From Acidimicrobiaceae bacterium (lineage in GTDB: Bacteria; Actinomycetota; Acidimicrobiia; Acidimicrobiales; Ilumatobacteraceae): a DNA stretch of 56,264 bases. How positions within the stretch are numbered: the stretch's first letter is position 1; every line of letters starts with the position of its first letter. The position numbers were made by a program, and so were the translations under genes. This document shows, piece after piece, positions 4,080 to 46,114 of the stretch. The notes below the pieces were generated by a model. That model saw only the letters and a list, made by a program, of their open reading frames with translations. It was not told the origin of the DNA and did not search any database. Location: positions 1 through 56,264 of the forward strand of contig CANHST010000001.1 in the NCBI GenBank assembly GCA_947463235.1, in the 5' to 3' direction.

Positions 4080-4083
4080 CAGG

Positions 4084-5754: not shown

Positions 5755-5762
5755 GGATCCCT

Positions 5763-7985: not shown

Positions 7986-7988
7986 GCG

Positions 7989-8288: not shown

Positions 8289-8305
8289 TCGGTGTTCCTT
8301 CCCCG

Positions 8306-12763: not shown

Positions 12764-12767
12764 GCGG

Positions 12768-27310: not shown

Positions 27311-27311
27311 A

Positions 27312-27629: not shown

Positions 27630-28192
27630 CAGGATTCACTCCCCTGCAACTCACCCTTGCGCGGCTTGCGCGCCAGCATCACGGTGCCGACCACGGCGAT
27701 CACCAGCAGCACCGACGTGAGTTCGAACGCCAACACGTGCGAGCTGAACAGATCGCGAGCGAGCGCCTTGATGTTGCCGTCGTGCAGTTGGCCACCACCG
27801 GGTGCCGCAACCTCGAGGCCCGTGCCGGCAACTGCGGTGCGGGCGTCGCGCGACACCACCACCGCAGCCACCACCAAACCGAACACGCCGACACCCACTG
27901 CAGCAGCGATGGGTCGCTGCACCTTGAACGGCTCGAGGCGCAGGTTCTCGGCGCGATCAACGCCGAGCAGCATGATGACGAACAGGAAGAGCACCACGAT
28001 CGCGCCGGCGTAGACGATCACCTGCACGGCCGCCAAGAAGTTCGCCTGCTGCGCCACGAACAGCACGGCCACACCGAACAGGGTGAGGATGAGGCTGAGT
28101 GCTGCATGCACCGGGTGCTTGCTGACGATCACACCGATGGCACCACCGAGCACCATGGCCGCCGCCACGACGAAGACGAAGAGCTCCATCAT
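27629..28192 (-). CDS. nuoJ: NADH-quinone oxidoreductase subunit J
   Basis: 187 aa with [20 protein letters not shown] and [19 protein letters not shown]. Confidence 0.92.
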
Positions 28193-28881
28193 CGTGTCAC
28201 CGACTTCACGGTCTTCTCCACCTTGTCGGCCTTCGGGGTGTCGGCTTCGGTCTGCGTTGCCTCGGCGGCGCGCACGCCGTAGCCGAGTTCGCTACTCCAA
28301 CCAACTGCGCCAACGAAGTCGGCGTCGCCAGCCGCAGCGGTGGCCCGCATCCAGCCGCTGGTGAACACGTCTTCGCCTTCGCGCCAGTCTTCCCACGGTA
28401 GTTGCTTGGGCTTGCCGTCGTCGCCGACGAGCAGTTCGGCCTTGCTGTACACAGCGTCGCGTCGGTTGGTGAAACTGAACTCGAAGAGCTTGCTCTCGGT
28501 GATGGCTTCGGTGGGGCAGGCCTCCACGCAGAGGTCGCAGTGGATGCAGCGCAAGTAGTTGATCTCGTAGACGAAACCGAAGCGCTCGCCGGGCGAGGTG
28601 GGTTCCTGCGGGTCGTTGTCGGCGCCGCGCACATAGATGCACTTGGCAGGGCACACACCGGCGCAGAGCTCACAACCGATGCACTTCTCCATGCCGTCCT
28701 CGTAGCGGTTGAGGACGTGACGGCCGTGCATCCGTTCGGGCTTGGCGATCTTCTCGTCGCGCCCTTCGGTCTTCTTGCCCTTCTTGGCAACGCGTCCGCC
28801 GCTGTACGGCGTGGTGACACGTTCGCCACCGAAGATGCGGTGCTGCTTCAGCGTGACGAGGAATCCGTCGAGGTATCCCAT
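28189..28881 (-). CDS. nuoI: NADH-quinone oxidoreductase subunit I (2x[4Fe-4S]; extended termini)
   Basis: 230 aa with [12 protein letters not shown] and [12 protein letters not shown]. Carries a Lys-rich N-terminal insert and a C-terminal tail of about 50 aa. Confidence 0.92.
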
Positions 28882-30098
28882 CAGAACATCGCCCCCTCTC
28901 GGTCGCGGTTACGGGCACTCACCTTGGTGGCATACGACAGCAGCCAGGCTGCAGCGCCCAACACCACCAGGCAGATGACACCGACGAGTGCTCGGTTCCA
29001 GTTGTTGTCCTGCCCGACGCGGAACGCAGCCAGCAGCATGAACCAACCCAGCGCGAGCGGGATCATCAGCTTCCAGCCGAGGTTCATGAGTTGGTCGTAG
29101 CGCAGACGAGGCAGCGTGGCACGGAACCACACGTACATGTACAGGAAGACGAGCACCTTCAGCAGGAAGAGCACGGTGCCGGCAAACGGCCCAAGGAATC
29201 CAAGCGTGATGTTGACGCCGCTGAATCGAATGGGCTGCGGCCCACCGAAGAACAACGTCACGATGACGCCGCTCATGGTGATCGTGTTCATGAACTCGGC
29301 GAGATAGAAGAGCGCGAATCGGATGCTGGAGTACTCGGTGTTGAAGCCACCCACCAGTTCCTGCTCGGCCTCGACCAGGTCGAACGGCGGTCGGTTCAGT
29401 TCGGCAGTAGCGGCGATGAGGAAGATCACGAACGGCACCACACCGGTGGCCACCACGTGCCAGCGGCTGAGGCTGCTCTGAGCGACCACGATGCCGTTGG
29501 TGCTCAGCGTGCCTGCCACCAAGATCACCGTGGCCAGAGCGAGACCGAGCGCTGCTTCGTAGCTGACCATCTGCGCCGATGCTCGGACCGAACCCAGCAG
29601 CGGGTACTTCGAACCCGAACTCCAGCCGGCGAGCATGATGCCGTAGATGGCGATGCTGCTCAGCGCCAGCAGCAACAGGACACCGATCGGAGGATCGGCC
29701 AACTGCAACTTCGTGGCATGACCCAGGATCATCACCGTGCCGTCCTTGCCATTGCTGAAGTCGCCACCCAACGGGATGACGCTCCAGACCAGGAAGGCCG
29801 GCACGAAGGCCAGATACGGGGCAAGGATGAACACGAACCGGTCGCTGCGATCCGGGATGAGGTCTTCCTTGAAGAACAGCTTGATGCCGTCGGCCAGCGT
29901 CTGCAGCAAACCCTTCGGCCCGGCCTTATCGGGGCCGATGCGGTTCTGCATGTAGGAGATGACCTTGCGTTCGAACCACACCATGAGCATGGTGCCCACG
30001 AGGCCGACGACGAAGACCACGAGCACCTTGATGATGACGATCAGGAACTCCGTGCTCCAGAGCTTGATGTGATCGAGGAGTTGGTCGAGCGCGAGCAT
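28881..30098 (-). CDS. nuoH: NADH-quinone oxidoreductase subunit H
   Basis: 405 aa with [27 protein letters not shown]. Confidence 0.93.
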
Positions 30099-32497: not shown

Positions 32498-33890
32498 CGA
32501 CAACTCCGACGCTGACAGGGATGTGCTTGCGTTCCACGATCTTGGCTTCGAACTCGTCGCGGAACAGCGTGAGTGCGGAGTGGACCGGGGCAAAGGCCGA
32601 CGGACCGACGAAACAGATGGTGGTCATCTTGTAGGGGAAGGGCGTGGCGTCGAGGCCGAGCTTCGAGCTGGACGCATGAGGGAAGTTGCCCGGGCAGATG
32701 GACTCGCCGATCTCGAACATCTGGTCGAGGTCGGCGCGGGTTCCACGGCCGTCGACGACTCGCTGCAGCACTCGCTCGAGCCAGGTACCGCCTTCGCGAC
32801 ACGGCGTGCACTGACCGCAGCTCTCCGCCGCGTAGAAGTGCGTCAGCGTGAGGGCAGCCTTCGGGATGTCGGTGGTGTGGTCCATCACCATGATGGCGCC
32901 GGAGCCCAACATCGAGCCGGCGGCACCGACGAGGCGACCTTCGAAGGGAAGGTCGAGTTGCTCGGGCGTGAACCACGGGGCCGAACCGCCGCCGGGCACG
33001 AACGCCTTCAGTTCGTTGCCGTTGCGGATCCCCTGGCAGAACTCCTCGCCGTAGAACAGGTCGCGGAATGTCGTGGTGCCGTTGATGATTTCGTACACGC
33101 CGGGGCGATTCACGTGGCCGCTGACGGCCACCATGCGCGTACCGGGCGATGTTGCAGTGCCGATGGCGGTGTAGGCAGCCGCGCCGTTGATGGCCAACCA
33201 CGGCAGGTTCGACAGCGTCTCGACGTTGTTCACGATGGTGGGCTGACCGTACAGGCCGATGGCGGCCGGGAAGAACGGGGGCTTCAGGCGCGGCTCGCCA
33301 CGCTTGCCTTCGAGGCTCTCGATCAGCGCTGTCTCTTCGCCGACCACATAGGCACCGGCTCCCCAGTGCAGCACGATGTCGACGCTGAACTTGGTGCCGA
33401 GGATGTTCTTACCGATGTAGCCGGCGGCGTACGCCTCGTTGAGCGCATTGGTGACTCGCTCGTGCGCCAGGGGCATCTCGCCACGGATGTAGAGAAACAC
33501 CTGCGACAGGCCTGCGGCGTACGCAGCGATGAGACAACCCTCCACCAACTGGTGCGGGTCGCGCTCCATGAGCAGACGATCCTTGTAGGTACCGGGCTCG
33601 CTCTCGTCGCCGTTCACCACGAGATAGCGCGGGAACTTGCCGGCGGGCATGAGGCCCCACTTCGTTCCTGCGGGGAAGCCAGCGCCACCACGACCGAGGA
33701 CGGTGGCCGTCTTCACTTCGTCGTGGACCTCGGTGGGCGACTTCTTCAGCACGGCCTTGAGGCCGTCGTAGCCGCCGGTGGCGTGATAGCGCTCGAGCGT
33801 GTAGCCGTCCTCGAGATGGAAGCGTGAGGTGACCACCTTCGGACGATCGCCATCGTCGATGTAACCGGCCGCCCAGGGATAGGTGCTCAT
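32484..33890 (-). CDS. nuoF: NADH-quinone oxidoreductase subunit F (FMN/NADH site)
   Basis: Start at ATG 33888-33890, an ATGA overlap with the nuoE stop. Motifs GRGGAGFPAGTKW, GEETALIESLEG and ESCGQCTPCREG. Confidence 0.92.
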   Translation of the reverse strand: MSTYPWAAGYIDDGDRPKVVTSRFHLEDGYTLERYHATGGYDGLKAVLKKSPTEVHDEVKTATVLGRGGAGFPAGTKWGLMPAGKFPRYLVVNGDESEPGTYKDRLLMERDPHQLVEGCLIAAYAAGLSQVFLYIRGEMPLAHERVTNALNEAYAAGYIGKNILGTKFSVDIVLHWGAGAYVVGEETALIESLEGKRGEPRLKPPFFPAAIGLYGQPTIVNNVETLSNLPWLAINGAAAYTAIGTATSPGTRMVAVSGHVNRPGVYEIINGTTTFRDLFYGEEFCQGIRNGNELKAFVPGGGSAPWFTPEQLDLPFEGRLVGAAGSMLGSGAIMVMDHTTDIPKAALTLTHFYAAESCGQCTPCREGGTWLERVLQRVVDGRGTRADLDQMFEIGESICPGNFPHASSSKLGLDATPFPYKMTTICFVGPSAFAPVHSALTLFRDEFEAKIVERKHIPVSVGVVDDHH

Positions 33891-34495
33891 TGGGCTGCCT
33901 CCGGCATCCAGGCAGGAACCACCGGGGCATCGGGCGACGCCACACCGGCGGCCTTGTCGGCGGGAATCTGCTGACGCACTCGGGCCAACGTGCCGTGCGC
34001 AGGGATCTCTCCGTCGAGGCGGCCGGCACGCAGGTCGTCGATCAACTCGTCGAAGTTCGCCGTGGTCATGCGATGGCAGTGGCGATAGTTCACCTGCATG
34101 TTGGGCGCCTCGGTACACGCTGCCTGACACTCGGCGTGTTCCAGCGTGAACATGCCATCGGAGGTGGTGCCGCCAGCCTTCACACCGAGCGTCTGCTCGG
34201 CATGGTGCATCAGTTCATCGGCACCGAGCAACTGGCAACTCATGGTTCCGCAGATGTTGACGAGGTACTTGCCCACCGGGGCCATCTTGAACATCTCGTA
34301 GAACGTGCACGTGCCCAGCACCTCGGCCGAGGTGGCGCCCACGAGTTCGGCGATATGCGCGATGGCATCGTCGGTGATGTAACCGTTCTGCTGCTGCGAC
34401 AGGTGCAGCAACGGAATGGTGGCCGAGCGAGCCCTCGGATAGCGACCGATGATCTCCTTCGCCACGAGAACGTTGGCTTCGTTCAACCGACTCAT
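33887..34495 (-). CDS. nuoE: NADH-quinone oxidoreductase subunit E (2Fe-2S)
   Basis: Start at ATG 34493-34495, an ATGA overlap with the nuoD stop. Cysteines of the thioredoxin-like 2Fe-2S fold are present (CGTMSCQ .. CQAACTEAP). Confidence 0.9.
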   Translation of the reverse strand: MSRLNEANVLVAKEIIGRYPRARSATIPLLHLSQQQNGYITDDAIAHIAELVGATSAEVLGTCTFYEMFKMAPVGKYLVNICGTMSCQLLGADELMHHAEQTLGVKAGGTTSDGMFTLEHAECQAACTEAPNMQVNYRHCHRMTTANFDELIDDLRAGRLDGEIPAHGTLARVRQQIPADKAAGVASPDAPVVPAWMPEAAQ

Positions 34496-35826
34496 CGGTC
34501 TACCTCTCCCAGGACGGGGTCGACCGATGAGATGACGGCCACGGCATCGGCCACGAGACCGCCGCGCATCATGTGCGGCAGACACTGGATGTTCACGAAC
34601 GATGGGGCCCGCACATGCATGCGGTACGGCGTGGAGGAACCGTCGCTGGCGATGTAGCAGCCGATCTCGCCTCGCGGACTTTCGATGGCCACGTACACCT
34701 CACCCTCGGGCACCTTGAAGCCCTCGGTGAAGATCTTGAAGTGGTGGATGAGCGCTTCCATGCTCTCATCGATGCGCGCACGCGGCGGCGGCGTGACCTT
34801 CTTGTTCTGGATGCGGAAGTCGCCCGAGGGCATCCGATCCAGAATCTGATGCACGATGCGGATGCTCTCGCGGATCTCGTTGAGGCGGATGGCGTAGCGG
34901 TCGAAGGCGTCGCCGTAACTGCCCACCACGACGTCGAACTCCACCTCCGGATAGCGAAGGTACGGCATGTCGCGGCGGAGATCCCACGGCACGCCGGTGC
35001 TGCGCAGGATGGGGCCGGTGGCACCAAGCGCCGTGGCTTCCTGCGCCGTGATCACACCCACACCCTGCAGACGGTCGCGCCAGATCGGCTGACCGGTCAT
35101 GAGGATGTCGTACTCCTCCAGGCGCGGGGGAATCATGTCGAGCAGGTGCAGCACGTCGTCGCGCCAGCCATCGGGCAGGTCGGCAGCCACACCGCCAGGA
35201 CGGATGAAGTTGTGGTTCATCCGCAGGCCCGTGACCTTCTGGAAGAAACGCAACACTTCCTCGCGCTCGCGCCAGCCATAGATCATCATGCTGACGGCGC
35301 CGATGTCCATGCCGTTCGTGGCAAGGAAGAGCAGGTGGCTGCTCATTCGGTTCAGTTCACTGAGCAGCATGCGCATCCAGACGGCGCGCTCGGGAATGTC
35401 GTTCTCGATGCCGAGCAACTGCTCCACCGCAAGGCTGAACACGAGTTCGTTGTTCAGCGGGCTGAGGTAGTCCATGCGGGTGACGTTCGTGCCGCCCTGC
35501 ATGTAGGTGAGTTGCTCACCGGTCTTTTCCATGCCGGTGTGCAGGTATCCGATGATGGGCTTGCAGCGCAGCACGGTCTCGCCCTGGAGCTCCAGCATCA
35601 GTCGGAGCACGCCATGGGTGCTCGGGTGCTGAGGACCCATGTTGATGATCATCGTCTGATCCTCGGAAGGATCGACGGGCAGATCGCCGAGCTTGGCGGC
35701 TTCCGCCTCGCTCATTCGCAGCACGGCGCCGACCTCGCGCAGCAGTTCGCGGGCGGTGATTTCGCTACGCGGCTTCAACCCCTGTGCGGGCTCGTTGCCG
35801 CCGCGGATGACGTCGACGATGCTCAT
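34492..35826 (-). CDS. nuoD: NADH-quinone oxidoreductase subunit D
   Basis: Start at ATG 35824-35826, an ATGA overlap with the nuoC stop. Motifs NMGPQHPSTHGVLRLML and LHTGMEK; C-terminal VISSVDPVLGEVDR. Confidence 0.92.
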   Translation of the reverse strand: MSIVDVIRGGNEPAQGLKPRSEITARELLREVGAVLRMSEAEAAKLGDLPVDPSEDQTMIINMGPQHPSTHGVLRLMLELQGETVLRCKPIIGYLHTGMEKTGEQLTYMQGGTNVTRMDYLSPLNNELVFSLAVEQLLGIENDIPERAVWMRMLLSELNRMSSHLLFLATNGMDIGAVSMMIYGWREREEVLRFFQKVTGLRMNHNFIRPGGVAADLPDGWRDDVLHLLDMIPPRLEEYDILMTGQPIWRDRLQGVGVITAQEATALGATGPILRSTGVPWDLRRDMPYLRYPEVEFDVVVGSYGDAFDRYAIRLNEIRESIRIVHQILDRMPSGDFRIQNKKVTPPPRARIDESMEALIHHFKIFTEGFKVPEGEVYVAIESPRGEIGCYIASDGSSTPYRMHVRAPSFVNIQCLPHMMRGGLVADAVAVISSVDPVLGEVDR

Positions 35827-36350
35827 GACGAGGCTCGCTTCGAGAAGTCGGCGGTGAACTGCACCGGGATACGGCTGGGATCGTCGTCCTTGCGCAGCGG
35901 GTGGCCTTCCCAATCCTCGGGCATGAGGATGCGCGTGAGGTCGGGGTGGTTGGTGAACGCGATACCGAACATGTCGAACACCTCGCGCTCCATCGCCTCG
36001 GCTCCGGGGTACAGGTCGAAGGCGCTGGCGATGCTGGCATCGGACTCCGGCACCTGCACCCGCAGACGGATGCGTTCGCGGCGCTCGATGCTGAGCAGGT
36101 TCACGACCACTTCGAACCGCTCGGCAGCGATGCCCTCAGGAAGAGCGCGACCCATGTGCAGCAGGTAGTCCACTGCGGTGAGGTCGGCGCACATGGTGAA
36201 GGTTTCGTCGAGCAAGGTGCGCAGCAACGCGATGTAGCCATCGCGCGTGGGGTGCAGCACTCGCTGGCCGCGACTGTCGCTCAGCGGCACGCCGTAGAGC
36301 ACCGTCGGCTCGGGCGCGAAGTTGGACTCGGGGGTGGTGGCCTCACTCAT
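35823..36350 (-). CDS. nuoC: NADH-quinone oxidoreductase subunit C
   Basis: 175 aa with [36 protein letters not shown]. Confidence 0.9.
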   Translation of the reverse strand: MSEATTPESNFAPEPTVLYGVPLSDSRGQRVLHPTRDGYIALLRTLLDETFTMCADLTAVDYLLHMGRALPEGIAAERFEVVVNLLSIERRERIRLRVQVPESDASIASAFDLYPGAEAMEREVFDMFGIAFTNHPDLTRILMPEDWEGHPLRKDDDPSRIPVQFTADFSKRASS

Positions 36351-36353
36351 GAG

Positions 36354-36992
36354 TTACCGGGTTCCCAGAATGACGGGCACCGGGTTGTCGCCAGCAGCGA
36401 TCTCGGTGACGTGCACGTTGGCGCCGGCACCGGTCTCCTGCCGACGACGCAGCAACTGGCCGTCCTCGATCAGTTGGTGCAGCGTCTCGATGGCGTGGAT
36501 GAGGGTCTCCGGAGTGGGAGGGCAGCCAGGGGCATACACATCGACCGGCACCACTTGGTCCACGCCCTGCACGATGGCGTAGTTGTTGAACATGCCGCCA
36601 CTGCTGGCACACACACCCATGCTGATGACCCACTTGGGTTCCATCATCTGGTCGTACACCTGGCGCAGCACCGGGGCCATCTTCTGGCTCACACGGCCGG
36701 CCACGATCATGATGTCGGCCTGTCGCGGCGAGGCGCGGAAGACCTCCATGCCGAAGCGACTGAGGTCGTAATGAGCTGCGCCCGTGGCCATCATCTCGAT
36801 TGCACAGCAGGCGAGACCGAACGATGCAGGCCAGGAACTGCGGCTGCGAGCCCAGTTCACCAGATCCTCGAGCTTGGCGGTGATGGCGTTGTGCTCGATG
36901 CCACCCATACCGTCGTCGAGAATGCCCTGCACGAAACTTCTGCCGGTGGCCGGCGTTGCGTCGACCGTTGCGTCGTGGTTCATCGCGCTCAC
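36354..36992 (-). CDS. nuoB: NADH-quinone oxidoreductase subunit B
   Basis: 212 aa with [18 protein letters not shown] and APGCPPTPE. Confidence 0.92.
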
Positions 36993-37450
36993 GCTGCGTT
37001 CTCCTGTGGGCGACCTTCGAGGCCGACGCGGCGGATGGTGCTACTGGACGTGCGCTCCGGTGAGAGGGCGGTATCGAGACGCCGTTGCACGTTCACCGGA
37101 CCCCACTCCAGCGCACCCCGTGCCACCACGTACACGAAGGCAGCGAAGAACACCACGCTGAATGCGACCATCTCCCACAGCGCATACGAGCCGAGGAATG
37201 CCCGGTCGACGGCGAAGGGGTAGATGAAGATGATTTCGATGTCGAACATGATGAAGAGCATGGCGACGACATAGAAGGTGACCGGGAAACGTTCCGGTGG
37301 CTCGCGGCTCGGCACGATGCCGCACTCGTACGGCGCCGACTTGGCAGCCGACGGACGACGCGGCGCGAGAAGGCGCGATGCACCGAAGCTCAAGGCTCCG
37401 AACAGCGTCGCCAGTACGAGGAGTGCGATGACCGGCAGGTACTGGCCCAT
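36989..37450 (-). CDS. nuoA: NADH-quinone oxidoreductase subunit A (with about 35-aa C-terminal extension)
   Basis: 153 aa with YECGIVP and FDIEIIF motifs. The start lies 3 nt after the stop of the preceding membrane-protein gene. Confidence 0.9.
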
Positions 37451-37453
37451 GAA

Positions 37454-38272
37454 TCAGACCTTCTGTGGTAGTGCCTTGGCGTCCAGGTTGGCGCGGACGT
37501 AGCGGTCGCGTCGGTGGAGCAGCCAGCACAGGATGAGGAAGATGATGAGCGACGAGATGCAGATGATGGCCGCAGGCTTACGCTTCGAGCCGAGGTCGCG
37601 GATCATGTACACGTAGTCGTGCGAGCGCGTCGTGTCGATCACCGGACGGGCCGGTGCGCGACCCGGTTCGGTGCGCTGTGGCACCAACGGCGCAGTCTCC
37701 ACGAGCGCATAGTGCGGATCGTGGAAGAACGCCAAGAAGTCGATGCGATCGTCCCAGAACGTGGGGTGGCGCTCGCCGCCCTTGTCGAACACGTTGACTA
37801 CGGTGAACTCGCCAGCCGCAAGTGCGCCGGATTCCTCGAGGAACACGGTGCCAGCCGAACCAGCCTGCTGGAACGACGGCAACGCCGGATCGAGCTTGAT
37901 CCACCCATCGGTGATCAGTTGCTGGCTGACGGCAGCAGCGTCGGCGGGAGCATCGCCGGTGGGCGTGAACGGCACCTGAATGACACCGACTTCATGCAAC
38001 AGCGCGCTATCACGGATCACCGTTTCGCCTGCGACGGCCTTCCAGGAGGAATCCGGGCCGAGGAGGCCCTTGCCGTACGACCACCAGATGGCACCCATGA
38101 GGAACATCCAGCCGGCCAACCCGGCAAACGCCACGAGGAAGCCGAGGCGGGCACCCATGTTGGTACCGAGGATCAGATAGATGCTGCCGCAGAGCACCGC
38201 CACCGAGATGATGACGATGAGGGTGCCGCGAAGCTCCCATTCCCAGTTCACAGCCAGAAGAGCACTCATCAC
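37454..38272 (-). CDS. uncharacterised membrane protein (2 N-terminal TM, about 170-aa extracytoplasmic domain, 1 C-terminal TM)
   Basis: 272 aa. ATGA overlap with the dihaem cytochrome c stop, and its own stop lies 3 nt before the nuoA start. Hydrophobic segments: LIVIISVAVLCGSIYLILG, LGFLVAFAGLAGWMFLMGAIWW, AAIICISSLIIFLILCWLL. I recognise no family. Confidence 0.7.
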   Translation of the reverse strand: MMSALLAVNWEWELRGTLIVIISVAVLCGSIYLILGTNMGARLGFLVAFAGLAGWMFLMGAIWWSYGKGLLGPDSSWKAVAGETVIRDSALLHEVGVIQVPFTPTGDAPADAAAVSQQLITDGWIKLDPALPSFQQAGSAGTVFLEESGALAAGEFTVVNVFDKGGERHPTFWDDRIDFLAFFHDPHYALVETAPLVPQRTEPGRAPARPVIDTTRSHDYVYMIRDLGSKRKPAAIICISSLIIFLILCWLLHRRDRYVRANLDAKALPQKV

Positions 38273-39351
38273 AGACCTCGCACGTATTCGACGACAGCCT
38301 TGATCTGCTCATCGGTGAGCAGGTGGCCGAAACCAGGCATACGACCAGAGCCCTGGCTCTGCATGCCGTACTTCTTACCGTTCGAGGAACCCGCCTTGAT
38401 GAAGCTGATCATGTCGGACTCGTTCGGGAAGTGGGTGTTCGTGGCTCCGCCGGTGAGGTTCCAGCCGAAGGCACCCTGGCCGGTCGCCACGGGATCGCCG
38501 TAGCTCCAGCCCTGCGTGTGGCAGCGGGCGCAGCTGTAGGCGCCGCTGTTGAGGTCGAGGTTGAAGAGCGCCTCGCCTTCGCTGGCATCCGGGTTCGCCT
38601 TCAGATAATTGTCGACGGCCTTCTGGATCTCGTCCTTGGTGGGCTGCGGCAGCGTGCCGCCGTCGCACACCGAGGGGTCGGCGGTATCGGAGAACGGCAG
38701 CGCCGAAGGGTTCACGCAGCTGTCGGGCTCGATCTGAATGGTCTCCAGGTACACCAGCAACGTCTCGATGTTCTGTTCGGTCATCGGGCCACCACCGGGG
38801 GCACCCCACGCCGACATCGGCGAGAAGGGACGGCCATAGTTCAGGATGAACCGCACCTCCTCCTTGCTGTAGCGGTAGAAAACCGTGTTGAGTGCGGGTG
38901 CGTACCAGCTGACGGCGCGAACCTCGCCGGTCTTCGGGTCGGTAACGGCATACGGCGCTTGCCCACCGGTGCCCTTCAGACCGCCGTGGCAACCGGCGCA
39001 GTTGAAGCCACCGTTGGCCGTGGTCTGGAACAGTTCCTCGCCCCAGCCCACGAACTCCTCGTGCTTCCGGTCGACGGCGCCGGCCTGACGGCCAGGCTCG
39101 AGAATCCAGTAGACGGGAAGGCCGATCACCATCGTGGCGAGCAGCAGCACACCGAACAGCTGGAAGCGCTCGAGTCGCGAACCTTCCATCTGTTCGTCGT
39201 CGTAGTACTGCTTCCGGTTCGGCGCCATCTCGATTTCGGAACCGAGTTCCTTGCGAGCCGACGAGTTGTTCAGGAAGTAGTAGGTGATCCAGCCGAGAAG
39301 GATGACCGTGAAGATCACCCAAGCAACAGCAGTGGTGTTGAGTGCAACCAT
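38269..39351 (-). CDS. membrane-anchored dihaem cytochrome c (QcrC-like role)
   Basis: 360 aa with two N-terminal TM helices, two CxxCH motifs (CAGCH, CARCH) and candidate Met ligands (PMSAWG, GRMPGFG). Confidence 0.88.
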   Translation of the reverse strand: MVALNTTAVAWVIFTVILLGWITYYFLNNSSARKELGSEIEMAPNRKQYYDDEQMEGSRLERFQLFGVLLLATMVIGLPVYWILEPGRQAGAVDRKHEEFVGWGEELFQTTANGGFNCAGCHGGLKGTGGQAPYAVTDPKTGEVRAVSWYAPALNTVFYRYSKEEVRFILNYGRPFSPMSAWGAPGGGPMTEQNIETLLVYLETIQIEPDSCVNPSALPFSDTADPSVCDGGTLPQPTKDEIQKAVDNYLKANPDASEGEALFNLDLNSGAYSCARCHTQGWSYGDPVATGQGAFGWNLTGGATNTHFPNESDMISFIKAGSSNGKKYGMQSQGSGRMPGFGHLLTDEQIKAVVEYVRGL

Positions 39352-40211
39352 CAGTGCGAGCCTCCGCCGCCGGTGATGCAGTGCGGACCCTCGGCCTCTT
39401 GGCCGGTGGTGTTGATGCCGATCGGGGCACCGGTGATCACGGTCGACGTGTCGATGACGACGTCGCCCGATGCGCTGACGGTGACCGCGAAGTGATCCAT
39501 GCCACGCGGGGCGGGACCGGCCTTCTTCTCACCGACGCGGTTGTACTGCGAACCGTGGCACGGGCACTCGAACCACTGGCTGCTGGCGCACTGCGGCACA
39601 CGGCAGCCGAGGTGCGGGCACTTCTGGTACATCGCCACAACGCCTTCGGAGAGACCGCCGAGCAGCGATTGGTACTCGGCAATGCCCTTGGCCTTCGGCA
39701 GTGCCTCGGGCGGATACTGCGTGATGTACGAACGCGCACTCGACGAGTAGAAGAAGCCGGCGTTGCTCCGGATGCTGGCAATGACGTCGTCGAGCTTGCC
39801 GACGCTCACCTTGCCGCCGAACACGGGCGCAGCAGTGGGCCACAGGAATGCCACGAAGGCACCGGCGGCGAACGTACCGAGGCCGGCGCTCATGAGCGTG
39901 ACGGTGGCGCGGTTGAGGAACTGGCGACGGTTCACACCGATCTGTTCCGCATCGGGAGCAACCCAGGTGACCGGGGCGGTGGACTCGGGCTTGACGAGGC
40001 TGGCCTCGCGAGCTTCGGTGGCGGCGCGCTCGACCTGGCGGCCCGTGGGTGCGGGCCCGTCGATCTCGGCGTCCTTGTCGCGACGACGCGTCTCGCGGCT
40101 GAGCGCACCGGCTCCGCGCACGTCGCTCTTTCGAGCGGCAGTGAGCAGGGCCACGGCGAACAGCGCGACGAGCACGACGGCGGCGATGGCGATGATGGCG
40201 GCAGGACTCAT
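39351..40211 (-). CDS. Rieske 2Fe-2S subunit of cytochrome bc/b6c complex
   Basis: Start trimmed to ATG 40209-40211. Has a twin-arginine-like NRRQFLNRA, and Rieske boxes CPHLGCRV and CPCHGSQY. Confidence 0.9.
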
Positions 40212-40224
40212 GACAGCAGGTGCC

Positions 40225-40995
40225 TCACAGTTCGAAGAAGATGCCGTCACGCCACGGGAGCGTGAAGTTGAAGCCGGGGCCACGGAAGAACGAACCGATG
40301 ATGACGAGCACGGCCCAGAACATGAGGTGCACGGTCATCAACGAGGTCGCGAACTTGCGATCTTCGGGCTTATTGGATGGGTTCTTGTCGATGAAGGGCG
40401 CAAGGATCAGCACGATCATGCCCACACCGGGGATGGTCACACCGGCGACCATCGGGTGGAACATGGTGAGCAGTTCCTGCAGACCGAGGAAGTACCACGG
40501 TGCCTTCGACGGGTTCGGCGTCTTGTTGATGTTCGCCTGCTGCAGCAGCGGGGCGTTCACGAAGATGCTGAAGAAGAAGGTGAACGACAGGCACGCCAGG
40601 GCGGCAACGAACTCACCGGCGAGTAGGTGCGGCCACGTGTGCACCTTGTCGACCGGCGAGGCCTTCACGTCCTGAATGGAGCCGCTCTTCACCACGGTGA
40701 GCAGACGCTGCGTGTGGCCACCGGGGCCAGCGCCCATCGGCACGCCACCACCGGCAGGAGCTGCGGCCACCACGCTGGCGACCTTCTCCTGCACGGCCAC
40801 GCCACCACCAGCGCCGTCAGCCTGCGCCTTGCGGGCCTTGCTGCGCTCGAGGAGATGGGCCGGGATACGCGGATCCGCGGCGGGTTCGCTGCTCGCCGCA
40901 GCGCCGGCGGCATCGGCCGCGGCACCGCTTTCGGCGGCAGCCTTGTCGCGAGCAGCTTGTGCTCGCTTGAGGAGGTGTTCGGGGATTTCGGTCAT
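40225..40995 (-). CDS. cytochrome b6f subunit-IV-like protein (C-terminal half of cytochrome b) with about 115-aa Ala/Lys-rich N-terminal extension
   Basis: 256 aa. The C-terminal 140 aa align by eye with PetD/subunit IV: three TM helices and the Qo-motif region [13 protein letters not shown]. The N-terminus carries two copies of an IPxHLLxRS..A.KA motif. Confidence 0.85.
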
Positions 40996-41012
40996 CGATC
41001 GTCTCCGTCAGC

Positions 41013-41798
41013 TCACAGGGGGCCCGAGATGCCGCCGTCTTTGCGGACTCGCCAGAAGTGGATAGCCATGAAGATGACGATCACGAAGGGCAGCATGAGT
41101 ACGTGCAGCACGTACCAACGCAGCAGCGTGTCGCCACCGATTTCCTTGCCACCGAGCAGCACGAACCGAACCTGGGTACCGATGACCGGCGAGTAGCCCA
41201 TCATGTTGGTACCCACGGTCACTGCCCAGAGCGCCAGCTGGTCCCACGGCAACAGATAGCCGGTGAACGACAGCAGCAGGGTGAGCATCAGCAGCACCAC
41301 GCCGATGACCCAGTTGAACTCACGCGGCGGCTTGTAGGCGCCGTGGTAGAAGACGCGGGCCATGTGCAGGAACACACTGAGCACCATGAGGTGCGCACCC
41401 CATCGGTGCATGTTGCGCACAAGTAAGCCGAACGTCACCGAGGTCTGCAGGTTCGAGATGTCGTTCCAGGCCTGCACGTCGGTGGGGCGGTAGAAGAACA
41501 TCAAGAAGATGCCGGTGACCGTCAGCAGGATGAAGAGGAAGAAGCTCAAGCCACCGAGGCAGAGCGTGTAGCTCACCTTCACGGCATGTCGCTTCACCTT
41601 CACCGGGTGCAGGTGGTACAGCACCGAGTTCATGATGACGTAGCTGCGGTTACGCGGGCTGTCGGTGTAGCCCTTGCGGAAGATGGAACCGGGCCGGAAG
41701 ATGGAACTCCAGGCCTGGCTGCCCTGCACGGAATCGACCGTCTTGTTCAGACGGTCTTTCACTGTGGGCTTGGGAGTGTCGTCGAGGATCTTTGCCAT
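41013..41798 (-). CDS. cytochrome b6-type subunit (N-terminal half of cytochrome b), haem-ci cysteine conserved
   Basis: 261 aa. By-eye alignment with plastid cytochrome b6 gives YTLCLGG (Cys80 matching b6 Cys35). The His pairs are spaced 14 (MHRW..FLHMA) and 15 (VLHVL..AIHFW). The C-terminal end RKDGGISGPL is b6-like. Confidence 0.9.
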   Translation of the reverse strand: MAKILDDTPKPTVKDRLNKTVDSVQGSQAWSSIFRPGSIFRKGYTDSPRNRSYVIMNSVLYHLHPVKVKRHAVKVSYTLCLGGLSFFLFILLTVTGIFLMFFYRPTDVQAWNDISNLQTSVTFGLLVRNMHRWGAHLMVLSVFLHMARVFYHGAYKPPREFNWVIGVVLLMLTLLLSFTGYLLPWDQLALWAVTVGTNMMGYSPVIGTQVRFVLLGGKEIGGDTLLRWYVLHVLMLPFVIVIFMAIHFWRVRKDGGISGPL

Positions 41799-41807
41799 TT
41801 CTCTTCC

Positions 41808-42221
41808 TCAGAGCCGCATGCCGTAGGCGTAGCCGTGGTTGTTGGTACGAGTGTGTGAATCGCCGGTCGTGCCCGGAGCGCCCACCTTGCCGAGGATGAT
41901 GACCCCGGTCGGGCAGCGGTCCACGCAGAGCTGGCACCGTGTGCAGATGTCGTCGTCGATGATGAACACGACGTTGTCGCTGGGGTCGAGCCCCGGCTTC
42001 TCCGTGCCGTTGGATTCCGAGATGGCGTCGGGTGACACCATGTGGATGCACTTCCACGGACAGATGTCGACGCAACCCTCGCACATGATGCACTCGGTCT
42101 GGTCGATGTGGATGAACTGCTTCGGCTTGACGGCCTTCGACAGGTAGTCGGCGTCGACCTCCACCAGGAGGTAGTCGTCGGTGTACGGCATCATCGCCGG
42201 ATTGGCGTCGGTCTTCGCCAT
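41808..42221 (-). CDS. 2x[4Fe-4S] dicluster ferredoxin-like protein encoded inside the bc operon
   Basis: 137 aa with CIMCEGCVDICP and CTRCQLCVDRCP and no TM segment. Its stop lies 9 nt before the cytochrome b6 start, and its start lies 3 nt after the stop of the upstream gene. Confidence 0.85.
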   Translation of the reverse strand: MAKTDANPAMMPYTDDYLLVEVDADYLSKAVKPKQFIHIDQTECIMCEGCVDICPWKCIHMVSPDAISESNGTEKPGLDPSDNVVFIIDDDICTRCQLCVDRCPTGVIILGKVGAPGTTGDSHTRTNNHGYAYGMRL

Positions 42222-42224
42222 GCG

Positions 42225-42713
42225 TCAGCCCTTCTTCACCAGCGGGCGACCGAAGCTGCTAGTGGCGATCTCGGTGCCGGCGACCACGTCGCCGCGCTTT
42301 TGCCACTTGCTCCAGAGGTAGATGAGCAGACCGAAGAACCACAGGTGGATGACGACCACCACGATGTCGCGAATGGCTTCGTACGACATGGTGATGGGCC
42401 AGCTGCCACCGAGCGCCTGCGGCTTGAAGATGTCGCCGGGGCCGTAGATGATGTTGTTCTTCGACCAGCCCAGTTCCTTGTCGGCATGGTCGATGAACTG
42501 GTGGGGGCACACGCCGAAGGCGATGAACATCACGCCGAAGGCGTACACCGACGCCAGCATGGCCTCACCCCAACTGGTGGGAGTGCCCTTGGGCCGGCGC
42601 TTGGAGTAGGGGATCACGATGAGCGCGCCGAAGGTGGCCAGGAAGAACGAAAACAGGAACGCCACGTTCATGCCGGGCCAATGCAATGGGTTCGTTTCGA
42701 ATGCGATCAGCAC
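42225..42713 (-). CDS. small uncharacterised membrane protein, first gene of the bc-nuo gene string
   Basis: GTG at 42711-42713 is preceded by GGAGAGGG at 7 nt; an alternative ATG lies at 42671. Three hydrophobic helices: FLFSFFLATFGALIVI, ASVYAFGVMFIAFGV, IVVVVIHLWFFGLLIYLW. The rest of track ORF 42225..43700 is antisense to a real cytochrome c gene. Confidence 0.65.
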   Translation of the reverse strand: MLIAFETNPLHWPGMNVAFLFSFFLATFGALIVIPYSKRRPKGTPTSWGEAMLASVYAFGVMFIAFGVCPHQFIDHADKELGWSKNNIIYGPGDIFKPQALGGSWPITMSYEAIRDIVVVVIHLWFFGLLIYLWSKWQKRGDVVAGTEIATSSFGRPLVKKG

Positions 42714-42728
42714 TTCGCTGCCCTCTCC

Positions 42729-42747
42729 ATGTGAACTGCTGCACGAA
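42729..42747. promoter_or_regulatory. weak Rex-like box in 5' region of the bc-nuo string
   Basis: aTGTGAActgcTGCACGAa compared with TTGTGAA-N4-TTCACAA matches 6/7 in the first half and 5/7 in the second. It lies immediately upstream of the RBS at 42721-42728. Confidence 0.3.
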
Positions 42748-42866
42748 CTGTAGCCACGCAACCCGGGGTCAGTACCAGTTCGTCCACGAGAACGCACCGT
42801 GACGTACCCCCGGACAGGTGTCACAAGCGACAGGTTTACCACGCGGACACCCCGACCGCCGTGCCG

Positions 42867-42884
42867 TTGTGAACTCGTGCACGC
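42867..42884. promoter_or_regulatory. weak Rex-like box upstream of the divergent cytochrome c gene
   Basis: TTGTGAActcgTGCACGC has a perfect first half-site (7/7) and a 4/7 second half. It lies 70 nt upstream of the GTG at 42954 and shares the core GTGAACTnnTGCACG with the box at 42729. Confidence 0.3.
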
Positions 42885-42953
42885 CGCCGGGTCGAGCGAC
42901 ATCGCGACCGAGGATTTCCCCCACGCGACCCTTCTCCGTCTATCGTTCACCCC

Positions 42954-43769
42954 GTGACCGAGATTCCCGAGCACCTGCTGAAGCGGAGCAAGGCCGCCAA
43001 GGCCAAGGCCGATGGCGCCGAAGCCCCTGCCGACGCACCCGCTGCCCCCTCCTCTGCGCCGGCCACCACCGACGCTGCCGTCCCTGCGGCTGCGGCCAAG
43101 GCCGCTGCGCCCGCAGTGCCGGCCGCACCCGTGGCCAAGCCCGATACTCCGGTGGTGGCTGCCTACAAGGCCCGCCGCAAGATCCCGGTATGGGCCATGC
43201 TCACGCTGAGCATCCTCCCCGTGTGGGCGTTCATGTACGTGCTGGCGATGAAGCCCGTCACCGCGAAGGCCACCGGCCCCCTCGGCGACGGTGCCGTGGT
43301 GTACTCCGGCAACTGCTCGGGCTGCCACGGCGGCGGCGGCGAGGGCGTCGGCTCCGCCTACGGCTTCACCAACGGTTCCGTGATGAAGACGTTCCCGCAC
43401 ATCGAAGATCAGGTCCGCTGGGTCGCACTCGGCACCAAGGCCTATCTCGATGCCGGCGTCAGCGTGTACGGCGACCCGAACCGCGAAGGCGGCGCACACA
43501 TCACCGGTGCCAGCGGCGGCCAGATGCCCGGCTGGAAGGGCAACCTCACCGACGCCGAGATCCTGGCCGCTGTCTGCGACGAGCGTTACGGCTTGGGTGG
43601 CGGCGACGAGGAGAGCGAAGAATTCGCCCTGTGGTGCGCCACCGACAGTGCGGTGTACGCGGCGCTCGAGTCGGGCGAGGCCACCTTCGACAATCTGCAC
43701 ACCGTCATCGCCGACAAGGGCATCATGGAGATCGGCAGCACGCCGATCGCTGGTACCACCGCCGGCTGA
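42954..43769 (+). CDS. membrane-anchored monohaem class I cytochrome c with Ala/Pro/Lys-rich cytoplasmic N-terminal extension
   Basis: 271 aa with a GTG start. One TM helix (IPVWAMLTLSILPVWAFMYVLAM), haem site CSGCH, and Met-ligand region GGQMPGW. The N-terminus [11 protein letters not shown] is identical to that of the subunit-IV-like protein. Confidence 0.85.
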   Translation: MTEIPEHLLKRSKAAKAKADGAEAPADAPAAPSSAPATTDAAVPAAAAKAAAPAVPAAPVAKPDTPVVAAYKARRKIPVWAMLTLSILPVWAFMYVLAMKPVTAKATGPLGDGAVVYSGNCSGCHGGGGEGVGSAYGFTNGSVMKTFPHIEDQVRWVALGTKAYLDAGVSVYGDPNREGGAHITGASGGQMPGWKGNLTDAEILAAVCDERYGLGGGDEESEEFALWCATDSAVYAALESGEATFDNLHTVIADKGIMEIGSTPIAGTTAG

Positions 43770-43842: not shown

Positions 43843-45099
43843 GTGAGCGACCGCGCGACCACCCCCACCGAGGTGCTCGTCATCGGCGGCGGCCCAGCAG
43901 GGGCGGCGGCCGGCTACTGGCTCGCGCACCACGGCCACGACGTCACGATCGTGGAACGCAAGACATTCCCGCGCGACAAGACCTGCGGCGACGGCCTCAC
44001 CCCGCGGGCGGTGCATCAACTCGGCGAGATGGGCCTCGCCGACCAACTCGTGAAGTACCACCGCTACGAAGGACTACGCGCCACCGGCATGGGGCGCGAA
44101 CTCGAACTGCAATGGCCGTCACACTCGGTGTACCCCAGCCACGGTTACGTGGCGCGACGCCGCGAACTCGACGAGATGGTCGCGAGGAATGCGGTCGCGG
44201 CTGGCGCGACCTTGCTCACCGGCCACGAGGCCACCGGTCCGATCATCGACCGTGGATTCGTGCGCGGCGCCACGGTGCAGACGAGCGACGGCTCGACCAA
44301 AGAACTGCGCGCCAAGTACGTCGTGGTGGCCGATGGGGCCAACAGTCGCTTCGGCCGGGCGCTCGGTACGTTCCGCACGCGCGAATGGCCCTATGGCACA
44401 GCGATCCGCACCTACTGGACCACCCCTCGCCATGCCGAACCCCTGATCGAATCGGCACTCGATCTGAAGGATCGCAACGGCAACCCGCTGCCCGGCTACG
44501 GCTGGATCTTCCCGCTCGGCGATGGCACCGTGAATATCGGCGTGGGATTACTCAGCACGTTCCGCGACTTCAAGAGTGTGAACACCACGCACCTGCTCGA
44601 GGCCTACGCACAGCAGGTTGCCGAACGGTGGGAGATCGACCCCGACAAACCGGAAGCGAAGGCGCAGAGCGGCCGCATTCCCATGGGCGGTTCGGTGGGC
44701 CCGAAGGCAGGGCCGAACTACCTCGTGATCGGCGATGCGGCCGGCAGCGTGAACCCGTTCAACGGCGACGGCATCGACTACGCGTACGAGACCGGCCGCA
44801 TGGCCGCATCGGTGTTACACGAGGCACTCGTGGCCGCCGACCCCACCACCCTGCAGCAGTATCCGCGTCTGCTCGATGATGCCTACGGCGATTACTTCAA
44901 GATGGCTCGCCTCTTCGCCCGCGTCATCGGTCGACCGACACTGATGCGCGAACTCACCCGAGTCGGCATGCACAACCGCACGCTGATGGAGTGGGTGCTT
45001 CGGGTCATGTCGAACATGCTGCGCGACGACGAGTTCGGCCCCGCCGAAGCCGCCTACAAGGCCGCCACCCAACTCGTGAAGCTCGCCCCCAACGCCTAA
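43843..45099 (+). CDS. geranylgeranyl reductase family FAD oxidoreductase (MenJ-like menaquinone side-chain reductase candidate)
   Basis: The GTG at 43843 was chosen because it follows the hairpin. N-terminus VLVIGGGPAGAAAGYWLAHHGHDVTIVERK (FAD fold), then CGDGLTP and IGDAAGSVNPFNGDGI. It neighbours a polyprenyl synthase gene, as in the mycobacterial menJ-grcC1 arrangement. Confidence 0.8.
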   Translation: MSDRATTPTEVLVIGGGPAGAAAGYWLAHHGHDVTIVERKTFPRDKTCGDGLTPRAVHQLGEMGLADQLVKYHRYEGLRATGMGRELELQWPSHSVYPSHGYVARRRELDEMVARNAVAAGATLLTGHEATGPIIDRGFVRGATVQTSDGSTKELRAKYVVVADGANSRFGRALGTFRTREWPYGTAIRTYWTTPRHAEPLIESALDLKDRNGNPLPGYGWIFPLGDGTVNIGVGLLSTFRDFKSVNTTHLLEAYAQQVAERWEIDPDKPEAKAQSGRIPMGGSVGPKAGPNYLVIGDAAGSVNPFNGDGIDYAYETGRMAASVLHEALVAADPTTLQQYPRLLDDAYGDYFKMARLFARVIGRPTLMRELTRVGMHNRTLMEWVLRVMSNMLRDDEFGPAEAAYKAATQLVKLAPNA

Positions 45100-45133: not shown

Positions 45134-46114
45134 TCAGAGGCTGGCGAGGAGGGCCGACGGCGCGGCGTACAGCGCGTCGGTGGCGGCACTGGGGGGAAGC
45201 AGTTCGCACGACGCCTCGGCGCGGGCCACCCACTCCTGGGCCGTCTGCATTGCGGCGGCGGCGCCACCATTGGAGCGCACGATGGACAATGCCTTGTCGC
45301 GCTCGGCCTGATCCAGCGGCTTGCCCAACAACGCCAGCAACTCCACCGCAGCCACGCCACCGGCCTGCAGCGTGCGCAGCACGGGAAGCGTGTACACGCC
45401 CTCCACCATGTCGTGCCCGGCTGGCTTACCGAGTTGCTCGTCGGTGGCCGTGATGTCGAGCAGGTCGTCGACGATCTGGAACACCATGCCGAAGGCTTCT
45501 CCGTACTCGGTGAGCGCATCGATAGCCGGGCGAGGCAGCCCAGCCACGATGCCGCCGATACGGGCCGAGGTGGAATACAGCGATGCGGTCTTGCCGCTGA
45601 TGCTGCTGAGGTAACTGGCCTCGGGTCGGGCCGAGTTGTACGTGTGGCGCAGTTCTTCGATCTGCCCCTCACACAAGCGGCCGATGGTGCGAGCCAGCAA
45701 ACCCGCCACCTCGGTGCCGAGCGACGCGGCGATCTCCGAGGCGCGCGCCAGGAGGAAGTCGCCGGCGAGGATGGCCTGCAGGTTGCCCCACTTGGCGTTG
45801 ACGGTGTCCACGCCTCGCCGGGTGTCGGCTTCGTCCATCACGTCGTCGTGGTACAGCGAACCGGTCTGGACGAGTTCGCACGAGATGCCGCCCTGAATGG
45901 CCTTCTCGCGTAGTTCGTCGTCGGCCGGGCCGGCCACCTGGGCCGCCACCACGGTGAGCACCGGGCGCAAGCGCTTACCGCCGGCAACGATCAGGTGCGA
46001 GGCAATCTCGCTGAGATATGCGTCGGGGGTGCGCACCGATGCCTTCAGCGCGTCTTCGATGCGCTCGAGGAGCGCAGCATGCGACGGCAGGGCGAACAGA
46101 GGCGCGGATGACAC
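45134..46114 (-). CDS. trans-polyprenyl diphosphate synthase (GrcC1/HepT-like)
   Basis: 326 aa with first and second Asp-rich motifs LYHDDVMDEADTRRG and FQIVDDLLD. Confidence 0.88.
   Translation of the reverse strand: MSSAPLFALPSHAALLERIEDALKASVRTPDAYLSEIASHLIVAGGKRLRPVLTVVAAQVAGPADDELREKAIQGGISCELVQTGSLYHDDVMDEADTRRGVDTVNAKWGNLQAILAGDFLLARASEIAASLGTEVAGLLARTIGRLCEGQIEELRHTYNSARPEASYLSSISGKTASLYSTSARIGGIVAGLPRPAIDALTEYGEAFGMVFQIVDDLLDITATDEQLGKPAGHDMVEGVYTLPVLRTLQAGGVAAVELLALLGKPLDQAERDKALSIVRSNGGAAAAMQTAQEWVARAEASCELLPPSAATDALYAAPSALLASL

Follow-up and report, generated by a model that had tools for sequence, protein, structure and literature searches.

A dicluster ferredoxin gene within the b6-type Rieske/cytochrome b operon of an Acidimicrobiaceae bacterium and its relatives

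Why should a non-photosynthetic bacterium keep a ferredoxin gene inside the operon for its Rieske/cytochrome b complex? The question is raised by a 56,264-nt stretch of freshwater Acidimicrobiaceae DNA (contig CANHST010000001.1; hereafter the window, to which all coordinates refer), in which a dicluster ferredoxin of 137 aa (41808-42221, minus strand) is encoded immediately upstream of a cytochrome b6 of 261 aa (41013-41798, minus strand). The role of haem ci and the feeding of the Qi site of b6f-type complexes by ferredoxin have been debated since the structures of 2003. From gene order, conservation, transcripts and homology, we consider it moderately probable that the ferredoxin is a dedicated iron-sulfur subunit on the n side of a b6-type, menaquinol-oxidizing Rieske/cytochrome b complex of deep-branching Actinomycetota; we infer both its binding to the complex and its exchange of electrons with haem bn/ci. 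Homologues and loci other than those of the window are labelled P#### and L###, respectively.

The ferredoxin and cytochrome b6 genes

The ferredoxin gene is the second and the b6 gene the third of seven close-packed minus-strand genes (42671 to 37454), which encode, in order, a small membrane protein, the ferredoxin, b6, a subunit IV homologue, a Rieske protein, a dihaem cytochrome c and a 272-aa membrane protein. From the small membrane gene to the adjoining nuoA, neighbours are separated by 3, 9 or 17 nt or overlap in their stop and start codons. Two CxxCxxCxxxCP motifs define the ferredoxin. The first (CIMCEGCVDICP, 42057-42092, minus; residues 44-55) is followed by an invariant W56 and is itself invariant across two ferredoxin alignments; in the second (CTRCQLCVDRCP, 41910-41945, minus; residues 93-104) the cysteines together with T94, R95 and R102 stay unchanged in sequences as little as 30% identical. 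Between the ferredoxin stop codon (41808-41810) and the b6 ATG at 41798 lies a Shine-Dalgarno-like spacer of 9 nt (GGAAGAGAA, 41799-41807, minus), which in relatives has a median length of ~13 nt. The preliminary description of this locus, a 137-aa 2x[4Fe-4S] protein encoded 9 nt upstream of b6, is thus confirmed in its motifs, coordinates and spacer. Given their G+C contents at third codon positions (0.92 for the ferredoxin, 0.88 for b6) and the numbers of homologues found (>2000 and >8000, respectively), neither gene is a chance open reading frame (ORF).

Pfam matches of the ferredoxin are confined to Fer4-type dicluster domains, with PF13237, PF00037 and PF12838 exceeding their cut-offs. 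Because it has neither a hydrophobic segment (maximum Kyte-Doolittle 19-residue mean 1.12) nor a signal or Tat motif, it is predicted to be a soluble, cytoplasmic protein. It is acidic (pI 4.6), and its net charge of -9 contrasts with the +9 of b6 residues 1-75, a region that faces the cytoplasm in b6f. The cluster motifs are preceded by an N-terminal extension of 43 residues, separated by an insert of 37 and followed by a C-terminal tail of 33, and both ends of the protein carry stretches that are invariant in the alignment (N-terminal TDANP and C-terminal GDxHxRT..HGYxYGxR). Invariant tails of this sort are typical of a docked subunit and unlike the carrier ferredoxins of 55-80 aa.

A sequence search of the PDB returned FwdF polyferredoxin domains and NuoI/NdhI as the best relatives of the ferredoxin, all generic or weak matches, and no Rieske/cytochrome b entry with a ferredoxin-like chain. 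Assignment to NuoI/NdhI was considered and rejected, as the protein scores 39.5 bits against the NuoI model TIGR01971, under the cut-off of 113, and the true nuoI genes of the window lie at 28189-28881 and 8833-9354. The automatic names given to its homologues (NuoI, PreA or formate hydrogenlyase subunit 6) are misleading in practice, as is the name 'selenite/tellurite reduction ... ExtP' given to b6.

Cytochrome b6 (Pfam PF00033, E 2e-46) is of the type assigned to the APWY clade (defined in PMC4122944) or subfamily G. In a phmmer alignment with the PDB b6 chains 2zt9, 6rqf and 1vf5 (E ~3e-48), Cys80 of YTLCLGG (codon TGC, 41559-41561, minus) aligns with Cys35 of VNIFYCLGG, which is the cysteine in thioether linkage with haem ci (cn); the preliminary description had likewise placed it there. 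The same alignment retains the haem-b histidines H131, H145, H232 and H247, the Arg/Lys of the RVRKDGGISGPL C-terminus (RxRK) and the terminal ISGPL, and F243, R247, I252 and the ISGPL C-terminus match residues around haem cn in 4OGQ (PMC5600118, Figure 4 legend). Cys80, which lies in the CxGG motif defined in PMC5600118 and PMC4122944, is accordingly predicted to bind haem ci covalently. Ahead of it stand a basic N-terminal extension (residues 1-57, 41628-41798, minus), which includes the motif WSSIFRPGS, and, just after this extension, a YHLHP motif (residues 61-65, 41604-41618, minus).

The subunit IV homologue (40225-40995, minus; 256 aa; PF00032) has a long cytoplasmic N-terminal region and an APWY Qo motif at residues 165-168 (40492-40503, minus). 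The Rieske 2Fe-2S protein (39351-40283, minus; PF00355), the start of which is uncertain (an ATG at residue 25 would fall after the subunit IV stop), has the boxes CPHLGC (39603-39620, minus) and CPCHGS-Q-Y (39549-39566, minus). The operon therefore combines the sequence features of a split b6-type complex of the APWY clade or subfamily G: a PF00033 b6 with a PF00032 subunit IV, the CxGG cysteine, APWY, and Rieske boxes encoded in the same operon. Encoded beside nuo, the complex probably serves this bacterium as its ordinary complex III. Mutational work on bc1 Rieske proteins has established that the Ser and Tyr of the CPCHGSxY box raise the redox potential; the window box CPCHGSQY retains both, a composition compatible with low-potential b haems and with output by bifurcation.

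Conservation, transcription and related iron-sulfur modules

Relatives of the ferredoxin turned up in at least 590 species genomes, and the best 80 loci were retrieved. Among these, the closest (ferredoxin 99% identical) is from an uncultured Acidimicrobiaceae metagenome-assembled genome (MAG) and the other close ones are from Ilumatobacteraceae or Acidimicrobiales MAGs; near-identical DNA is also present in lake and river metagenomes. The b6 gene directly follows the ferredoxin gene in 78/78 loci with sequence available, and every one of these b6 genes keeps YHLHP and T(L/F)CLGG, hence the cysteine. The small membrane gene precedes the ferredoxin in 80/80 loci, and gene order through nuoB is retained wherever the contig extends; the 272-aa protein is syntenic in 54 loci and the monohaem cytochrome c that flanks the operon in 71. 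Median identities to the window proteins are 85% for the ferredoxin, 90% for b6, 81% for subunit IV and 64% for the small membrane protein, against 62% for the Rieske protein, 61% for the dihaem cytochrome c and 55% for the 272-aa protein. Since its median identity lies near that of b6 and far above that of the Rieske protein, the ferredoxin changes as slowly as a core subunit.

An exhaustive search of 1.8 billion representative proteins yielded few full-length relatives of the ferredoxin below 66% identity, seven of which were looked up. Five of these seven distant lineages (35-60% identity; P0305, P0346, P0352, P0294 and P0250) keep the order small membrane gene, ferredoxin, b6 (loci L082, L083/84, L086/87, L088-90 and L094) and, contig permitting, also subunit IV, Rieske protein, cytochrome c and membrane protein. 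A gene of the size of the small membrane protein occupies the equivalent position in L082, L083, L086, L088 and L094, and an equivalent of the 272-aa protein by position is present in L082 and L088. All named members of the distant clusters carry Actinomycetota MAG labels. The co-occurrence of the ferredoxin with a Cys-bearing split b6 in related genomes, which the preliminary description had put forward for survey, thus holds throughout the 78 close loci and in five of the seven distant lineages.

The ferredoxin and b6 genes are co-transcribed. On contigs from freshwater metatranscriptomes the read depth of the ferredoxin gene is similar to that of b6, and two RNA contigs (X26 record 15, 41656-42090; X27 record 23, 41781-41910) cross the junction between the two genes; these contigs derive from relatives that are 88-99% alike, and RNA libraries may contain DNA.

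Two groups of database entries call for caution. Four contigs assigned to 'Bifidobacterium' or 'Bifidobacterium breve' MAGs (L048, L049, L065 and L066) carry the full Acidimicrobiia-type operon, with ferredoxins 82-83% identical to that of the window and synteny from the geranylgeranyl-reductase-like (GGR-like) gene to nuoB, and are almost certainly mis-binned or mislabelled. Apparent fusions of the ferredoxin with b6 or with the small membrane protein (P0134, P0136, P0184, P0265 and P0339) are out-of-frame read-throughs of single contigs. The ferredoxin-b6 'fusions' P0134, P0136, P0157 and P0184 were discarded as evidence of docking, being frameshift or assembly artefacts, and an alignment built on them misplaced ferredoxin homologues onto b6.

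The nearest relatives outside the Actinomycetota link the ferredoxin to a second kind of bc-associated protein. They are the C-terminal 90 residues of proteins of ~610 aa (P0381, P0382 and P0388), the N-terminal part of which consists of a GltD-like Fer4_20 region and a domain for flavin adenine dinucleotide (FAD) and nicotinamide adenine dinucleotide (phosphate) (NAD(P)), and the genes of which adjoin Rieske/cytochrome b genes. Ferredoxin residues 35-117 align with P0381 residues 517-601 at 41% identity (85 residues, pairwise E 4e-20), and share with them the long insert between the clusters; in the search of 1.8 billion proteins the ferredoxin matched the GltD-type dicluster domain at E 1e-11. 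A match between the N-terminal stretch of P0381 and the C-terminal tail of the ferredoxin (E 0.42) was not significant and was set aside. A metagenome scan found further genes for such GltD-ferredoxin proteins adjoining Rieske/cytochrome b genes in L133, L147, L167 and L170.

Comparable proteins are known from anammox bacteria. In planctomycetes, including Kuenenia, short cytochromes b of 'subfamily G' co-occur with NAD(P)-binding iron-sulfur proteins (PMC5600118, section 9). In Kuenenia these subunits co-migrate with the complexes in complexome profiling and have been placed on the n side by AlphaFold3 (PMC5600118, section 9; PMC12954380, sections 3.3 and 4), and in the models successive [4Fe-4S] clusters connect haem cN/bN, and an extra interfacial haem b that is itself predicted, with FAD (PMC12954380). 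The window ferredoxin, with 137 aa and Fer4 matches only, has neither the GltD-like FAD/NAD(P) domain nor additional iron-sulfur clusters. Judged from relatives of like architecture, which stood in for the Kuenenia proteins themselves in our comparison, it is a homologue of one domain of the Kuste4570/Kustd1483 type and not a member of that type.

The preliminary description had offered the ferredoxin as a dedicated subunit of a b6 complex, of a kind with no described example. The first part is favoured by co-variation, slow evolution, shared transcripts and invariant tails. The second falls, because anammox and planctomycete complexes in which a cytoplasmic iron-sulfur NAD(P) oxidoreductase is a subunit have already been reported (PMC5600118, section 9; PMC12954380) and the ferredoxin is homologous to their dicluster domain. 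We regard the actinobacterial ferredoxin as a probable variant of the kind of iron-sulfur module described for anammox complexes. Split cytochromes b of Ilumatobacter, I. coccineus included, and their APWY relatives have already been catalogued with the ferredoxin unmentioned (PMC4122944), and the literature that we searched yielded no description of an actinobacterial ferredoxin gene in a b6 operon.

The haem-ci cysteine and the role of the ferredoxin

Assignment of the ferredoxin as a bound n-side subunit has to be weighed against several observations. The 78/78 count leans to one family, the 80 loci being the closest of at least 590 matches. In two of the seven distant lineages the ferredoxin gene lies away from b6, and there the protein has either an altered first cluster motif (P0267, L093) or no N-terminal extension (P0369, L095/L096). 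An AlphaFold2 model of the ferredoxin from a 52-sequence alignment was unusable (predicted local distance difference test score (pLDDT) 46, predicted template modelling score (pTM) 0.32). The ferredoxin has no catalytic domain that would point to a cytoplasmic partner.

The remaining observations against it concern haem ci. Metagenomes were scanned with the N-terminal 100 residues of the b6 type, and the 80 loci obtained were ranked by similarity to cytochrome b linked to a GltD-ferredoxin. A cysteine at the haem-ci position was found in 71/80, mostly as TWCMGG. Of the Cys-bearing APWY-clade loci, 39 extended at least 2.5 kb upstream; 36 of these had neither a dicluster ORF nor a GltD-ferredoxin; one of the other three had a GltD-ferredoxin and two had weak, distant ferredoxin-like ORFs. 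Conversely, three cytochromes b linked to a GltD-ferredoxin have no cysteine (W in L081, Y in L147, W in L170). Since 36/39 Cys-bearing loci have no ferredoxin gene in cis, the n-side iron-sulfur module is an accessory and not a requirement of haem ci, and since cysteine without module and module without cysteine both occur, the two are independent characters clade-wide. The functional tie between ferredoxin and haem-ci cysteine that the preliminary description had drawn is therefore not supported, and the constant pairing of the two is, in the loci compared here, a trait of the actinobacterial lineage.

The scans yielded further observations on these loci. A very common metagenomic operon from this cytochrome b clade, in which the genes from Rieske protein to octahaem cytochrome c follow the order typical of the Cys-bearing loci, encodes a ~300-aa protein, a Rieske protein, b6 (TWCMGG), a ~375-aa subunit IV, a ~1000-aa octahaem cytochrome c and a ~250-aa protein (L109, L117, L124, L130, L150, L164, L168, L175 and others; b6 at ~5950-6770), and no gene for an iron-sulfur partner is present in it. 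The N-terminal WxSIFR/YHLHP motifs of b6 were considered as a signature of ferredoxin docking and dropped, as they also occur in the 36 clade loci that have no ferredoxin. In L095 (3278-3628) and L096 (2165-2515), a gene of the ferredoxin family (116 aa) is divergent from a GGR-like gene that is itself followed by nuoA, B and C; the neighbours are those of the window, the intervening bc genes are absent, and a pair of genes for an extracytoplasmic function (ECF) sigma factor and its anti-sigma factor follows. This short gene may be what is left of the operon, or else a paralogue put to new use.

If the ferredoxin is bound as an n-side subunit, the complex would have seven parts: the small membrane protein, ferredoxin, b6, subunit IV, Rieske protein, dihaem cytochrome c and the further membrane protein. 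Its p-side function would be that of an ordinary quinol:cytochrome c oxidoreductase, and a short n-side wire made of the two ferredoxin [4Fe-4S] clusters would link haem bn, haem ci or the Qi pocket to the cytoplasm. The ferredoxin would then represent a minimal version of the anammox-type FeS-FAD-NAD(P) module, in which the membrane-proximal dicluster domain alone is retained and the flavin/NAD(P) head is absent. Electrons could enter by this route, passing from a low-potential donor through the ferredoxin and haem ci to menaquinone, as in the idea of a ferredoxin-quinone reductase for b6f. They could instead leave by it, with bifurcation of quinol sending one electron to an acceptor in the cytoplasm, the scheme put forward for Kuenenia, where electron output to NAD(P) is likewise still a proposal; Kao and Hunte have speculated that APWY complexes work in reverse (PMC4122944). 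We slightly favour input. That the main complex III of deep-branching aerobic actinobacteria has a hard-wired ferredoxin port at the haem bn/ci site, serving either as a ferredoxin:quinone reductase, such as has long been postulated for cyclic flow in b6f, or, by bifurcation, as a source of low-potential reductant under oxic conditions, is a tentative extension that we think possible but doubtful.

As a bound subunit, the ferredoxin would make this operon a minimal natural n-side dicluster 'plug' in abundant aerobic actinobacteria, some of them cultivable. Were it bound close enough to haem bn/ci for electron transfer, the complex would become a simple model in which to study electron exchange on the n side, and the respiratory chains of the Acidimicrobiia and of their relatives in soil and fresh water would have to be modelled differently; a hard-wired port, whichever way it runs, would be the first non-photosynthetic, cultivable b6-type system in which such exchange can be measured directly.

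Other roles can be envisaged for the ferredoxin. It could be a co-expressed, diffusible carrier that serves the complex or another enzyme and is not a stable subunit. Its solubility and acidity would suit a carrier, family members away from bc genes exist, and the 11-subunit complex I without NuoEFG that is also encoded in the window would need a ferredoxin-like donor. We nevertheless judge a carrier unlikely, because its length of 137 aa, its invariant tails and its insert set it apart from carrier ferredoxins, and because it is as conserved as a membrane core subunit, is encoded between two membrane-subunit genes in a place that stays constant down to 35% identity, and has its closest relatives outside the phylum as covalent parts of bc-associated subunits.

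The same evidence for binding would serve equally for a subunit that has no external partner and acts beside the Qi site as an internal electron buffer or redox sensor, storing the first electron for one two-electron reduction of menaquinone or reporting the redox or oxygen state of the cytoplasm. Absence of a catalytic or nucleotide-binding domain from the ferredoxin would fit such a role, as would a complex that is probably the ordinary complex III beside nuo, and n-side centres that pre-load the Qi site have been discussed (PMC5600118). However, the homologous GltD-type domain plainly conducts electrons through to FAD/NAD(P) (PMC12954380), b6f-type complexes already have an extra electron store in haem ci, and most members of the clade have no ferredoxin, so that we find a buffer or sensor quite unlikely.

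A role in assembly seems very unlikely. The ferredoxin, perhaps with the small membrane protein, would in that case act in a CCB-like manner, for instance as the reductant for attachment of haem ci to Cys80, and be absent from the mature complex. Ferredoxin and cysteine do occur together in every actinobacterial locus, cytochrome c maturation genes adjoin the operon in L082 and L088, and we know of no haem-ci maturation system for these bacteria; but assembly factors are rarely conserved like a core subunit, the 36 of 39 Cys-bearing relatives manage with no ferredoxin gene in cis, and GltD-ferredoxin modules accompany cytochromes b that have no cysteine. Finally, dicluster ferredoxin domains are ubiquitous and a housekeeping ferredoxin gene could have come to lie in the operon by chance, an explanation made highly improbable by the 78/78 and 80/80 synteny, the order kept down to 35% identity, co-transcription and homology to bc-linked iron-sulfur subunits.

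Neighbouring genes and comparison with known systems

The first gene of the operon (42225-42671, minus) encodes the small membrane protein, which is basic, has 148 aa and three predicted helices, and ends 3 nt before the ferredoxin ATG; profile searches of Pfam and NCBIfam gave no match to it. Downstream of the Rieske gene lie those of the membrane-anchored dihaem cytochrome c (38269-39351, minus; CAGCH and CARCH), the start of which overlaps the Rieske stop, and of the 272-aa membrane protein (37454-38272, minus), the last of the bc module, which overlaps the cytochrome c stop with its start, ends 3 nt before nuoA and likewise had no family match in Pfam and NCBIfam profile searches. Transcribed divergently from the operon is a monohaem cytochrome c (42954-43769, plus; 271 aa; CSGCH), whose cytoplasmic N-terminus resembles that of subunit IV. 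A cytoplasmic peptide, IP(E/A)HLL(K/E)R(A/S)xA, is present in two copies near the N-terminus of subunit IV (40963-40986 and 40843-40866, minus) and in a third at the N-terminus of the monohaem cytochrome c (42963-42986, plus). All three copies are present in 59/80 related loci and fewer in the rest, some of which are short contigs, and neither L082 nor L088, two of the distant loci, has the peptide, which may be a common docking or targeting motif. A scan of 36800-43100 for promoters and terminators gave counts not above those in shuffled sequence, and Rfam and tRNA scans of the window gave no matches.

The bc operon is followed directly by a canonical nuoA-N operon of 14 genes (22381-37450, minus). 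The second complex I operon (2556-13133, minus) has 11 genes, nuoA, B, C, D, H, I, J, K, L, M and N, and has no NuoEFG, the module that oxidizes NADH. Ferredoxin is often suspected as the donor to such NuoEFG-less sets, which makes this operon relevant to a cell with a ferredoxin-fitted bc complex. The cytochrome genes are flanked by a GGR-like flavoprotein gene, possibly MenJ-like (43864-45099, plus), which is syntenic in most related loci with a median identity of 77%, and a polyprenyl diphosphate synthase gene (45134-46114, minus); these neighbours suggest a linkage with the synthesis or saturation of the menaquinone side chain.

Among known systems, the anammox and planctomycete complexes (Kuste4569-4574 and Kustd1480-1485) share with that of the window the APWY Qo motif, a split b6 with CxGG, the N-terminal WxSIFR...HLHP and an operon-encoded iron-sulfur protein, which is placed on the n side there (PMC5600118, PMC12954380) and predicted to lie there in the window complex. 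Both iron-sulfur proteins are FwdF-like, whereas the Fer4_20/GltD FAD-NAD(P) part is found only in the anammox subunit. The partner on the p side is a dihaem cytochrome c here and a hexa- or octahaem protein in the anammox complexes, aerobic actinobacteria of fresh water, soil and sea are the hosts here, and the small membrane gene before the ferredoxin is an addition relative to the anammox operons.

The b6f complex of cyanobacteria and chloroplasts resembles the window complex in its split b6 and subunit IV, in the equivalence of Cys80 and Cys35 and in the concept of electron entry on the n side. In b6f, however, ferredoxin and FNR are transient soluble partners, whereas the ferredoxin here is encoded in the operon; the Qo motif is PEWY in place of APWY, and cytochrome f, PetG/L/M/N and pigments are absent here. 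Bacillus QcrABC and Heliobacterium PetCBD are likewise menaquinol-oxidizing complexes III of Gram-positive bacteria with CxGG (PMC3509893, PMC4122944). Actinomycete QcrCAB shares the dihaem cytochrome c (QcrC) and differs in its unsplit QcrB, which has no such cysteine; the QcrB-type model gives window b6 only 123 bits against a cut-off of 500. An iron-sulfur subunit of the present kind is not known from either the firmicute b6c or the actinomycete QcrCAB complexes.

Geobacter ExtOPQ is close in its profile scores. Window b6 exceeds the cut-off of the NCBIfam ExtP model NF040969 (309.7 bits against 290), which begins at b6 residue 55 and so leaves out the first 54 residues, and subunit IV matches ExtQ below its cut-off (50.3 bits against 150). 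In Geobacter the ext cluster (extHIJKLMNOPQS) encodes multihaem cytochromes, a porin and a rhodanese, with no ferredoxin among them (PMC5877670), and none of those genes is present in the window. The cluster was considered as a ferredoxin-containing relative and rejected, as ExtM and ExtN are multihaem cytochromes c. The ExtP name (selenite/tellurite reduction operon b-type cytochrome) is already attached to the Acidimicrobiales proteins P0156 and P0186, and its use for b6 of Acidimicrobiia is probably an over-propagated annotation. PsaC of photosystem I and NuoI/NdhI, finally, share with the ferredoxin the 2x[4Fe-4S] fold enlarged by tails and a loop, which in them fix a terminal wire to a membrane complex and in the ferredoxin would do so; they are its analogues only.

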